Below, one piece after another: positions 23,587 to 25,861 of a stretch of 64,000 bases of DNA (positions are counted from its first letter, which is position 1; the number at the start of each line of letters is the position of its first letter). Under the pieces are notes generated by a model, which made no database searches, was not told the DNA's origin, and worked only from the letters and a program-made list of their open reading frames with translations. Source of the stretch: a virus; IMG/VR virus record IMGVR_UViG_3300023180_005138, positions 1 to 64,000 of that record; one strand, given 5' to 3'. The position numbers and the translations under genes were made by a program.

Positions 23587-23899
23587 AAATAATGATCCTT
23601 TAAAGGCTTACAAGTTACTTAATAGAAAACTCCATGAAGCTAATATCTTTATAGAGTTAAAAGAAAGACAACACTATAAGTCTAAAGGAGAAAAAAGAAG
23701 AGAAAAGCGAAAAAGAGCTGTTGCTAGACAAAGAAAAGAGCATGCTCAAAAAGAAGCTATTCTATTAAAATTAGAAAACCAAATAACACGAGGAAATAAT
23801 GGTAGAAGAAACAACACAGGAAAACCAAATTCAAATAGAATGGGTTCCACTAACCGTAGCAGGAATCCTCAAAGTAAAGCTCCCAGAACCAACAGTTAA
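23570..23899 (+). CDS. rpsU: Ribosomal protein bS21 with C-terminal extension
   Basis: IIVRNND..KAYKLLNRKL...IF.ELKERQHY.SKGEKRREKRKRAVARQRK. Confidence 0.85.
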   Translation: MRIIVRNNDPLKAYKLLNRKLHEANIFIELKERQHYKSKGEKRREKRKRAVARQRKEHAQKEAILLKLENQITRGNNGRRNNTGKPNSNRMGSTNRSRNPQSKAPRTNS

Positions 23900-24491
23900 T
23901 TTCTTAACAGAACTTACAGATATTATTTTATCAGATGACCCTGATTTAGAAGGGCTATCATATGATGATAGGTTAGCTGGACAAATTAAAGCAGGAAAAC
24001 AACGAGAAATACCTCTTACTGAAGAAACTAGAAAATCAAAAGCTATGTCTAATTTCTTAACTTTTTCTTCTAATATTTGTCTTGAATGGATGAATGGTTA
24101 TCTACACTATAATCCAAAAGCACGTACTACTTGGAATGATACCATAAGTGTAGATATATATGAATTTTGGGTAAATAAACAGTTAACTGGTGATTATAAC
24201 CCTCTTCATAATCATTGTCAGCCTTTTGCAGCTCTTAGTTCGGTAATTTACTTGAAAGTTCCAGAACAGATTTCAAATAATAACGATTTAAAAAGCGATG
24301 ACGGAATGATTAAGTTTTTGTGGAGCGATAGAGGAAATCCTCATATGTTAGAATTTCCGGGCATGTTAACAGTAAAACCAGAAGTAGGAGATTATTATGT
24401 TTTTCCTGCTTGGCTAAATCATGAAGTATCACCCTTTAGAGGAGAAGGGGAGAGACGTTCTTTAAGTTGGAACGCAAAGCTTTGGGTTTAA
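23799..24491 (+). CDS. 2OG-Fe(II) oxygenase (TIGR02466-like)
   Basis: WVN.Q..GDYNPLHNH, LSSVIYLKVP, P..GD..VFPAWL.HEV.P, ERRSLSWN. Confidence 0.85.
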   Translation: MVEETTQENQIQIEWVPLTVAGILKVKLPEPTVNFLTELTDIILSDDPDLEGLSYDDRLAGQIKAGKQREIPLTEETRKSKAMSNFLTFSSNICLEWMNGYLHYNPKARTTWNDTISVDIYEFWVNKQLTGDYNPLHNHCQPFAALSSVIYLKVPEQISNNNDLKSDDGMIKFLWSDRGNPHMLEFPGMLTVKPEVGDYYVFPAWLNHEVSPFRGEGERRSLSWNAKLWV

Positions 24492-24826: not shown

Positions 24827-24855
24827 TTGACAGTGTCGCAAAAATCATATAAAAT
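24827..24855 (+). promoter_or_regulatory. Sigma70-type promoter overlapping purS start (possible tmRNA promoter)
   Basis: TTGACA-17-TAAAAT. Confidence 0.6.
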
Positions 24856-25066
24856 AACTATAATGCTAAAGAGAGGAATACTCGATAACGCAGGAAAAGC
24901 GACAACTAAAGCTTTAAATAATTTAGGGTTTAAAACTGTAGAAGATGTTAGAATTGGAAGATGCATCTATCTTACTACAGACAAAGATATTGAACCCATA
25001 GCTCAGTCTCTTTATAATAGTGTTATGGAAGAGTATGAAGTTAAGTGTCTTGATGACGTAGACTGA
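24833..25066 (+). CDS. purS: Phosphoribosylformylglycinamidine synthase subunit PurS
   Basis: I.LK.GILD..G.A...AL..LGF..V.DVRIG...L.NSVMEEY; GTG start with SD AAGGGG (alternative leaderless ATG 24863). Confidence 0.85.
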   Translation: MSQKSYKITIMLKRGILDNAGKATTKALNNLGFKTVEDVRIGRCIYLTTDKDIEPIAQSLYNSVMEEYEVKCLDDVD

Positions 25067-25108
25067 AAACTGAACTGGACCGGGGGGCAGTACCCCGCGC
25101 CTCCACCA
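25061..25108 (+). ncRNA. ssrA: Two-piece tmRNA, acceptor piece (5' end approximate)
   Basis: T-arm CGGGG-GGCAGTA-CCCCG, acceptor strand CGCCTCC-A-CCA. Confidence 0.88.
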
Positions 25109-25129
25109 TAAACATATGAAGGAAAAACA

Positions 25130-25258
25130 ATGGATTGGTTTACAGCAGATTTAATACATGCAATGAACGAGACATCGTGGGTCGATGGCATTGGAACCAT
25201 TGTTGTTCTACTTGGTGCTTACTTTGTATACAAGTGGATTAACAATAAATTCAAATAA
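25130..25258 (+). CDS. 42-aa single-TM protein inside tmRNA intervening segment
   Basis: SD GAAGGA; MDWFTADLIHAMNETSWVDGIGTIVVLLGAYFVYKWINNKFK. Confidence 0.7.
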   Translation: MDWFTADLIHAMNETSWVDGIGTIVVLLGAYFVYKWINNKFK

Positions 25259-25273
25259 TCGTGTGTTTATGAT

Positions 25274-25456
25274 GGGGGCGAAATAGGATCGACAGGCAGA
25301 TAATAGGAAAGCCGAGAGACAGGTGCGCAAGCGACCTTAACCGCAAGAAAATCAATAAATGCAAACGATAATTTCGTAGCATCTGAGAATTATGCACTAG
25401 CTGCATAATCTTTCTGGGGTTCGGTAGGTTCCTAGCAACAGAATACCTACCATTTT
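25274..25456 (+). ncRNA. ssrA: Two-piece tmRNA, coding piece; tag ANDNFVASENYALAA (25361-25408)
   Basis: GGGGGCG pairs with CGCCTCC incl. G3.U70; AAATAGGATCGAC D-loop; AATAAAT-GCA resume; 3' hairpin GGTAGGT/ACCTACC + TTTT. Confidence 0.92.
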
Positions 25457-25465
25457 GAGGGACAA

Positions 25466-25861
25466 ATGTTATACGAAATCTTAAAATTTCCTACTGTTTC
25501 TGATGACAGAGGCAATCTAACCTATATTAATAATCTTGAACAAATTCCTTTTGAAATTAAAAGAATGTTTACTGTTGATAGCGTCCCTGCCGGAGCTGTC
25601 AGAGGCGGTCATGCACATCATCAGCTTCAAGAAGTCTTAATTCCAATTTATGGAAGATTTATCGCTTATTTATCAGACGGAAAAACATCAGAAGAAGTAG
25701 AGATGATTAATCCTAGAACTGGTTTATTATTATATCCTCATATTTGGAGAGAAATAAAAGGGTATACAAAAGGAGCAATTTGTTTATCTCTTTGCTCTAT
25801 GACTTTTGATGAGTCTGACTATATTCACACATGGGAAGAATTTAAAAAAATATATGTCTAA
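25466..25861 (+). CDS. fdtA: dTDP-6-deoxy-3,4-keto-hexulose isomerase (FdtA/QdtA cupin)
   Basis: DDRGNL...IPFEIKR, RGGHAHH, GLLL.P.IWRE, FDESDYI. Confidence 0.88.
   Translation: MLYEILKFPTVSDDRGNLTYINNLEQIPFEIKRMFTVDSVPAGAVRGGHAHHQLQEVLIPIYGRFIAYLSDGKTSEEVEMINPRTGLLLYPHIWREIKGYTKGAICLSLCSMTFDESDYIHTWEEFKKIYV

Follow-up and report, generated by a model that had tools for sequence, protein, structure and literature searches.

Does the segment between the two pieces of a circularly permuted transfer-messenger RNA (tmRNA) gene hold a genuine protein gene and, if so, how would that gene be expressed? The question is raised by a locus in the first 64,000 nucleotides (nt) of IMG/VR virus record IMGVR_UViG_3300023180_005138 (positions 1 to 64,000, called the window here), which belongs to a 117-kb viral record estimated to be complete. 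In a sequence-only reading of the window, a 42-amino-acid (aa) open reading frame (ORF) had been noticed between the acceptor and coding pieces of a two-piece tmRNA. The analysis presented here makes it highly probable that an uncultured marine phage has, at this locus, a circularly permuted (two-piece) tmRNA gene that looks functional and contains, in its intervening segment, a bona fide gene for a single-helix, probably membrane-inserted microprotein.

The permuted tmRNA gene and its closing stem

A permuted tmRNA with the tag ANDNFVASENYALAA was called by ARAGORN at 25016-25499, the only one in the region. The Rfam models RF01849 (alpha_tmRNA) and RF04321 (tmRNA_permuted) were matched over their full length and scored 117.1 and 116.2 bits at the locus, with gathering scores of 50 and 47, respectively. 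Both searches agree with the earlier description of a permuted two-piece tmRNA in which the acceptor piece (T-arm, 3' acceptor strand, CCA) lies upstream and is followed by the coding piece with the 5' acceptor strand and the tag frame. The T-loop, the CCA ending at 25108, the first base of the coding piece (G25274) and the G3.U70 pair were all found where they had been placed. In both Rfam alignments, a large insertion is present between CCACCA and GGGGGCG; this intervening segment, the ends of which were read from the sequence and located by script, would be absent from the mature tmRNA. The T-loop is an uninterrupted stretch of 7 nt without a group I intron, and no intron family was among the Rfam matches at the locus. 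The tag frame ends in the hydrophobic ...LAA followed by a stop, as expected of tmRNA tags. The parts of the locus are the following:

25046-25108, plus strand: acceptor piece (ARAGORN, Rfam), including the 5' strand of the long-range helix; 5' boundary only as Rfam models it
25081-25097, plus strand: T-arm CGGGG/CCCCG with the loop GGCAGTA, read from the sequence; its pairs covary
25098-25104, plus strand: 3' acceptor strand CGCCTCC, read from the sequence; its pairs covary
25105-25108, plus strand: discriminator A25105, then CCA at 25106-25108, read from the sequence
25107-25119, plus strand: 5' strand of the closing stem, CATAAACATATGA; it begins with the final two bases of CCA
25109-25273, plus strand: intervening segment (spacer) of 165 nt, an insertion relative to both Rfam models
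25118-25123, plus strand: Shine-Dalgarno (SD) sequence GAAGGA, 6 nt 5' of the ATG at 25130
25130-25258, plus strand: microprotein gene (42 aa), with an acidic N-terminal part, a hydrophobic helix and a basic C-terminus
25259-25271, plus strand: 3' strand of the closing stem, TCGTGTGTTTATG, directly after the stop codon
25274-25454, plus strand: coding piece (ARAGORN, Rfam, covariation)
25274-25280, plus strand: 5' acceptor strand GGGGGCG, starting at G25274; G25276 paired to T25102 is G3.U70
25361-25408, plus strand: tag frame ANDNFVASENYALAA plus TAA (ARAGORN)
25426-25449, plus strand: terminal hairpin of the coding piece (ARAGORN, Rfam)

An alignment of nine related genes revealed that 97.7 % of the cells in the T-arm, the acceptor stem and the closing stem are paired. 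Compensatory changes were observed in 13 of the 25 pairs, including three of seven in the acceptor stem and three of five in the T-arm; none of 500 shuffles matched this, and slid controls fell to 40-50 %. The alanine identity pair G3.U70 (UG) was present in all nine sequences. No SmpB (PF01668) was found in the 117-kb phage record, and the two-piece tmRNA of the phage would need the SmpB of its host. Phage tmRNAs that lean on the host protein usually come without an SmpB of their own.

The 13-bp stem with two G.U pairs that had been seen to close the intervening segment continues the acceptor stem in the minimum free energy (MFE) fold (z = -5.0; none of 200 shuffles folded as well). It covaries across the various types of spacer content (cargo) described below: matched ends gave -12.7 kcal/mol versus -4.5 kcal/mol for mismatched ends (p = 9e-28). 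The stem was also found around short, ORF-less spacers. The idea that it is the inverted repeat of a mobile element was ruled out, as the same covarying stem closes these short spacers and those with all cargo types.

The alphaproteobacterial host that had been suggested on the basis of the tmRNA type proved to be weakly founded. The best cellular matches of the window tmRNA, from Rhizomicrobium, Pseudolabrys, Rhizobium and Bartonella, had near-equal scores, and phage Melnitz, a known phage with a permuted ssrA gene of the same alpha type, infects OM43, a gammaproteobacterium (PMC9004378). As the window tmRNA matches many alphaproteobacterial orders equally well and Melnitz infects OM43, an alpha-type tmRNA does not settle the host.

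The nested microprotein gene and its relatives

The SD sequence and the 42-aa ORF were confirmed as previously described, with the stop codon (TAA, 25256-25258) abutting the 3' strand of the closing stem and the ORF taking up 129 of the 165 nt of the spacer. ARAGORN, run over the fetched loci, revealed 17 that have the gene nested after CCA and ahead of the coding piece, including that of the window. These represent seven distinct DNA variants with five tags (ANDNFVASENYALAA, ANENFASEDLRLAA, ANYNFAHEDYALAA, ANEDNFALEDYALAA and ANDNFAFEDYALAA), and in all of them the tag frame is intact and ends in ...ALAA. Every nested variant retains an SD sequence (GAAGGA or GGAG), the ATG, and a stop codon abutting or overlapping the 3' stem strand. 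Among pairs of nested variants with any non-synonymous change, dN/dS was 0.10-0.30, at dS values of up to about 1.2. Within lineages the ratio was 0.11 (window versus L005) and 0.28 (L049 versus L067), and nested lineages at a dS of about 1 still gave 0.10-0.18. The variable columns in the seven variants are distributed over the three codon positions as 10/3/19. The ORF is thus conserved with a coding substitution pattern and is, on that evidence, a real and selected gene. As the stems of the tmRNA covary and the nested ORF is under selection, neither gene is a relic; both are maintained.

In a DNA search against phage records, the ORF part alone matched Pelagibacter phage Mosig. Mosig_00134, a separately annotated coding sequence of 129 nt, specifies a protein with 71 % identity to the window protein over all 42 residues. 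It is located in a baseplate-hub cluster, among baseplate-hub genes and unknowns that give no clear functional clue, at 7.6 kb from the permuted tmRNA of Mosig itself, the spacer of which is short. A large protein database yielded 18 clusters of proteins of 40-43 aa with 71-86 % identity to the window protein, and relatives are encoded on 104 viral contigs. The family has an invariant core (D7 L8 A11 N13 T15 S16 W17 D19 G20 I21 G22) in addition to the hydrophobic helix and the basic C-terminus. The window protein matches phrog_9048, of which the function is unknown in PHROGs (E = 1.1e-5). The 117-kb record contains the ORF only once. AlphaFold2, supplied with the family alignment, predicted one helix of residues 2-41 (pLDDT 81) with the best confidence over the hydrophobic residues 21-40. 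The earlier label "single-TM" is a prediction that comes down to the single long helix and a hydrophobic stretch of some 18 residues; the microprotein is probably a single-pass membrane helix. A role as a membrane-acting accessory factor, in host takeover, exclusion or lysis timing, is put forward with low confidence.

Most members of the family are not nested. Of 78 family genes with 10-kb flanks, 57 have no tmRNA in reach (up to 10 kb), 16 are nested, two lie two genes upstream of a tmRNA and three are located 949 nt downstream of a tmRNA, which in the latter case has a spacer of 12 nt. In the gene tree, the window gene and that of L325 belong to a clade (support 97/86) together with tmRNA-adjacent copies. 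The nested copies fall into two separately supported groups, which points to at least two changes of state, a tentative count in view of the short length of the gene. The spacers of the window and L005 are identical at 158 of 165 positions (96 %), while their acceptor pieces share 59 % and the first 87 nt of their coding pieces 47 % identity; the breaks in identity fall at CCA and GGGG. This argues that spacer content has been exchanged between different tmRNA genes, as a cassette. L049 and L067, on the other hand, have 91-93 % identity throughout. The window and Melnitz share 80 % identity in the acceptor piece and 47 % in the spacer. The window ORF is best described, from these comparisons, as a mobile member of a mostly stand-alone family, a point that was absent from the sequence-only reading.

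Spacer cargo in phages and in cells

The sequence-only reading had called for a survey of phage and alphaproteobacterial spacers for ORFs and dN/dS. Viral contigs were scanned for an acceptor-arm motif, after which the matching 5' acceptor strand was located. Among the matches listed, 85 distinct viral alpha-type tmRNA genes had spacers of 4-499 nt, 32 of which were at least 100 nt long. With the same motif, and with one genome per prokaryotic species, the 85 cellular genes among the matches listed had a median spacer length of 28 nt and a maximum of 83 nt, so that none reached 100 nt, in keeping with the remark made earlier that alphaproteobacterial spacers are short. The cellular sample is mostly alphaproteobacterial and includes Pelagibacteraceae. 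Long spacers are restricted to phages in the sample. The only candidate for a long bacterial spacer, in L253 (a Caulobacteraceae metagenome-assembled genome, OZ260070.1), was rejected, since the 547-nt call of ARAGORN is a mis-parse and the real spacer is about 33 nt. The tag that ARAGORN reported for this gene is false as well, the true one being ANDNFAGEVRLAA, which is a caution for length-based surveys.

The long phage spacers are filled with ORFs. In 26 non-redundant long spacers, the sense ORF starting with ATG fills a median of 78 % of the spacer, compared to 40 % for the antisense strand and 37 % for dinucleotide shuffles (Wilcoxon p = 1.3e-5), and a fill of at least 60 % was observed in 20 of the 26. 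Of the 21 spacers that are at least half covered by an ORF, 18 have its start at most 45 nt from CCA, usually behind GGAG or AGGA. In four recurrent cargo families dN/dS was 0.15-0.51 (six pairwise comparisons), next to the 0.10-0.30 of the window family. The cargo is drawn from more than ten families, including the following:

L103, L106 and L179: family of 43-47 aa
L182, L006 and L167: 35-aa "EYICINNYS" family
L119 and L187: family of 72-74 aa
Melnitz and L198: "KIPKYLSG" family
L159:1650-1835, minus strand: 62-aa Cys-rich protein with 61 % identity to Melnitz gp84
L121:8744-8932 (43.3 bits) and L174:6425-6595 (33.5 bits): Pfam DUF6356 (gathering score 24.4)
Other loci: several single cases

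The spacer is a new and odd genomic home for DUF6356. The annotated SsrA of Melnitz (MZ577095, L001:2575-2736) has a spacer that hides an unannotated, SD-led ORF (GGAG, ATG). Its KIPKYLSG-motif relative at L198:2488-2589 (minus strand) resides in a spacer of 499 nt together with a second, 120-aa membrane-type ORF. The Cys-rich protein of 62-66 aa (…CLGSTCLEQDVQWF…YICKPVGS) is encoded directly upstream of the tmRNA in Melnitz (L001:2259-2456) and in L006 (about 1632-1818). In L159 its gene is within the spacer, and small genes from the neighbourhood seem to move into this slot. The ORF-less spacers of 79-98 nt in L003 (Bacteriophage DSS3_MAL1 ssrA), L118, L151 and L147 hold T-arm-like motifs (GGTTCGAAACC, GGGTTCAAGTCCC and TTCGAATCC), which may be tRNA-like minihelices guiding processing.

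About half of the long phage spacers have a cargo ORF of which the stop codon lies inside the mature coding piece, either 13 nt into it (L106, L179, L101, L178, L182, L167 and L119) or 33-64 nt into it (L001/Melnitz, L174, L006 and L187). Such stops typically read ...ATG ATG GGG SNN AAA TAG. In these genes, the RNase P cut would leave a non-stop mRNA, a natural substrate of tmRNA, recalling the regulation of ArfA. Taken together, the stem-closed spacer appears to be an insertion-tolerant, well-transcribed slot for the recruitment and exchange of small genes, and the nesting in the window is one case of a general habit of phages, which the sequence-only reading had likewise missed.

Expression of the nested gene and comparison with known systems

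Permuted tmRNA genes are transcribed into one precursor, from which tRNA-processing enzymes produce two pieces that pair with each other (PMC11915505, PMC9004378). Upstream of the acceptor piece the following features are present:

24827-24855, plus strand: promoter-like TTGACA-17-TAAAAT upstream of purS (11/12 matches, consensus match only), the stronger of two sites
24863-25066, plus strand: purS-like gene (Pfam PF02700 PurS, E = 1.4e-14)
24990-25018, plus strand: promoter-like TTGAAC-17-TATAAT just 5' of the acceptor piece (10/12 matches); in the RF01849 alignment it falls on the conserved 5' flank

The downstream site is likely to be the promoter of the tmRNA precursor, and the one in front of purS might give rise to a longer transcript that includes the tmRNA. 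The last 75 nt of purS contain the downstream site, and the purS stop codon falls inside the acceptor piece as Rfam models it, a tight overlap between a protein gene and an RNA gene. The Pfam scan identified the gene downstream of the tmRNA as an FdtA-type isomerase; a 230-aa 2OG-Fe(II) oxygenase (PF13759, E = 5e-20) is encoded two genes upstream of the tmRNA, at 23799-24491. When same-locus relatives with other cargo were sought, the purS/fdtA flanks were common to no other sampled locus.

We propose that transcription from the site at 24990-25018, with a possible contribution of the purS promoter, would give a single precursor. The SD sequence and the AUG would emerge right after the acceptor piece, unpaired and just 3' of the 5' strand of the closing stem, and ribosomes would translate the nascent or unprocessed precursor. 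In the MFE fold they sit in an unpaired stretch of 16 nt, only the first two SD bases being paired. Transcription reaches both about 140 nt ahead of the 3' stem strand and the 5' acceptor strand, so that ribosomes can load while the tRNA-like domain is still unable to fold. The 3' stem strand would be covered by the terminating ribosome until this ribosome leaves the TAA at 25256-25258, after which both stems, closing and acceptor, could form. RNase P would then cut 5' of G25274 and 3' processing would trim the acceptor piece to the CCA at 25108, giving the two-piece tmRNA. The released, stem-clamped RNA of 165 nt could act further as a small mRNA; it is a possible template because the window ORF lies wholly within the spacer. 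For about half of the related cargo ORFs, which end in the mature coding piece, the unprocessed precursor must be the template. Translation of the precursor would be the more general reading, with the excised RNA as an extra possibility for the window.

Several points weigh against this reading. The closing stem includes the two 5'-most bases of the SD sequence as well as the base that follows the stop codon, by which the folded precursor could restrict initiation. Should the 3' end of the acceptor piece be matured purely by exonucleases that start at the RNase P cut, the spacer would be degraded in the process and no free RNA would come from it. An ORF of this length is not rare in shuffles of the window spacer alone (P = 0.105), so that the case for the gene rests on conservation, and the shortness of the gene (126 nt) brings wide uncertainty on the dN/dS values and the tree. 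In Pfam, the ORF had only two matches, both to DUFs and below threshold, and the ESM Atlas gave only unnamed clusters. Each of the two samples, viral and cellular, was limited to the first 120 matches, all of tmRNAs that fit one acceptor-arm motif, which makes the frequencies rough. Finally, we infer the transcription, two-piece processing and translation of the window locus, and likewise the transcription start, the RNA species that is translated, the membrane location and the role of the protein.

Four other explanations have to be weighed against precursor translation. The sequence-only reading had favoured the released RNA itself as the main source of the protein, made after RNase P cleavage and 3' processing, so that output would be set by tmRNA maturation. 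The SD sequence, ORF and stop all lie within the spacer; a stem of 11-13 bp would hold the two ends of the released RNA together and might protect them, and covariation has kept this stem around all cargo types. That the stem also closes short, ORF-less spacers argues, however, that it is part of the tmRNA precursor and not an mRNA device. Moreover, about half of the related long-spacer cargo ORFs cannot be finished on the excised RNA, which therefore is not a general solution, and the fate of the spacer in two-piece tmRNA systems was not found in the literature looked at. We regard this route as possible but doubtful. Translation might instead matter mainly for its timing, with ribosomes on the spacer delaying the closing and acceptor stems, thereby timing or throttling tmRNA maturation, and with the peptide being secondary. 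A ribosome terminating at a stop codon that abuts the 3' stem strand must cover this strand, and the cargo ORFs of relatives often run through the stem into the acceptor stem. Such a regulatory function as the main one is nevertheless unlikely: purifying selection acts on the amino-acid sequence, most genomes keep this protein as a separate gene remote from any tmRNA, and the cargo includes members of an established protein family (DUF6356).

The remaining two explanations deny function to one of the two genes, and both are very hard to reconcile with the data. If the tmRNA were a decaying, non-functional remnant split by insertion of a gene, the region would be an ordinary mRNA only; the lack of an SmpB gene in the phage record and a spacer far longer than in any sampled cellular gene would fit such a history. 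The Rfam scores of more than twice the gathering thresholds, the compensatory changes in T-arm and acceptor stem, the invariant G3.U70 and the intact ...ALAA tags in all nested variants do not, and phage tmRNAs that use the host protein commonly lack SmpB. The ORF, in turn, could be a silent relic, conserved through recent transfer or constraint on RNA structure rather than through translation. The 96 % identity between the spacers of the window and L005 means that this pair alone says little about selection, and the length of the ORF is no argument against a relic, being non-significant relative to shuffles of the window spacer. Yet nested lineages at a dS of about 1 keep the frame, SD sequence, start and stop at a dN/dS of 0.10-0.18, and the variation is concentrated at third codon positions, which is not expected from a constraint on RNA structure.

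Going beyond precursor translation, one may speculate that the spacer is a dedicated, exchangeable expression cassette. The stem would act both as a recombination handle and as the clamp of a mini-mRNA released by tRNA-processing enzymes, and cargo output would be coupled to tmRNA maturation; stops within the tmRNA would yield a non-stop message tagged by the tmRNA itself, in an ArfA-like feedback. This extension is, at present, rather improbable.

Spacers of permuted tmRNA genes are regarded as disposable. Annotation pipelines mask everything within a tmRNA call as non-coding, so that microprotein genes in spacers are systematically missed, as in the SsrA of Melnitz. If the proposal is correct, it would represent a new way for the precursor of a stable RNA to double as an mRNA, and a natural system in which translation competes with RNase P and tRNA-type processing on one transcript. 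It would also give a catalogue of selected phage microproteins, many of them membrane-type, whose genes are carried within an early, strongly expressed RNA gene of abundant marine phages, and it would suggest a compact design for co-expressing a small protein and a structured RNA.

The order of acceptor piece, CCA, spacer and coding piece, the G3.U70 pair and the alanine-rich tag are shared by the window and known permuted tmRNAs. Where the sampled cellular permuted tmRNAs have a spacer with a median length of 28 nt, that of the window has 165 nt and carries an SD-led, selected gene. The paper on Melnitz (PMC9004378) does not go into the spacer, and coding spacers are not mentioned in it. In the 2025 paper on the tmRNA database, with 11,946 permuted sequences, only a tRNA-Ala gene and a repetitive element are given as unusual spacer contents, and the reported protein genes are limited to homing endonucleases, which occur in the group I introns of 36 of 883 intron forms (PMC11915505). 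No description of coding tmRNA spacers was found in the literature, subscription papers not covered. The group I intron tmRNAs (PMC11915505) resemble the window in having a protein gene within the tmRNA gene that is removed from the mature RNA. They differ in that the insertion is in the T-loop, splices itself out and leaves a religated RNA of one piece, the cargo being its own mobility enzyme, whereas in the window there is no intron and the RNA would stay in two pieces, and the cargo of the phage spacers is diverse small proteins. The tRNA-Ala gene in the intervening sequence of one permuted tmRNA (PMC11915505) indicates that the spacer tolerates a functional insert, which the same processing enzymes would set free. 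It is, however, an RNA gene and a single case reported as unique, while the phage inserts are protein genes and common.

The nearest analogue in layout is found outside the tmRNAs. Intervening sequences of bacterial 23S rRNA, as in Leptospira and Coxiella, carry an S23p ORF. As proposed for the window spacer, they are excised, stem-closed spacers of a fragmented stable RNA with a conserved ORF, and the mature RNA is in pieces. These cellular elements interrupt rRNA, are excised by RNase III and have one cargo family; the phage spacers interrupt tmRNA, would be removed by RNase P and tRNA 3' processing, and hold many exchangeable families. The likeness is one of layout only, as no match to the S23p four-helix-bundle family (PF05635) was present in the Pfam scan of the window ORF. 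In the tRNA punctuation of polycistronic mitochondrial transcripts, RNase P and tRNA 3' processing, acting on tRNA-like structures on either side, set the limits of an mRNA; in the window, the two "tRNA" halves on either side belong to a single tRNA-like domain and pair around the message. By every sequence criterion tested, the window locus is a member of the permuted tmRNA family, and its coding spacer appears to be the new feature.

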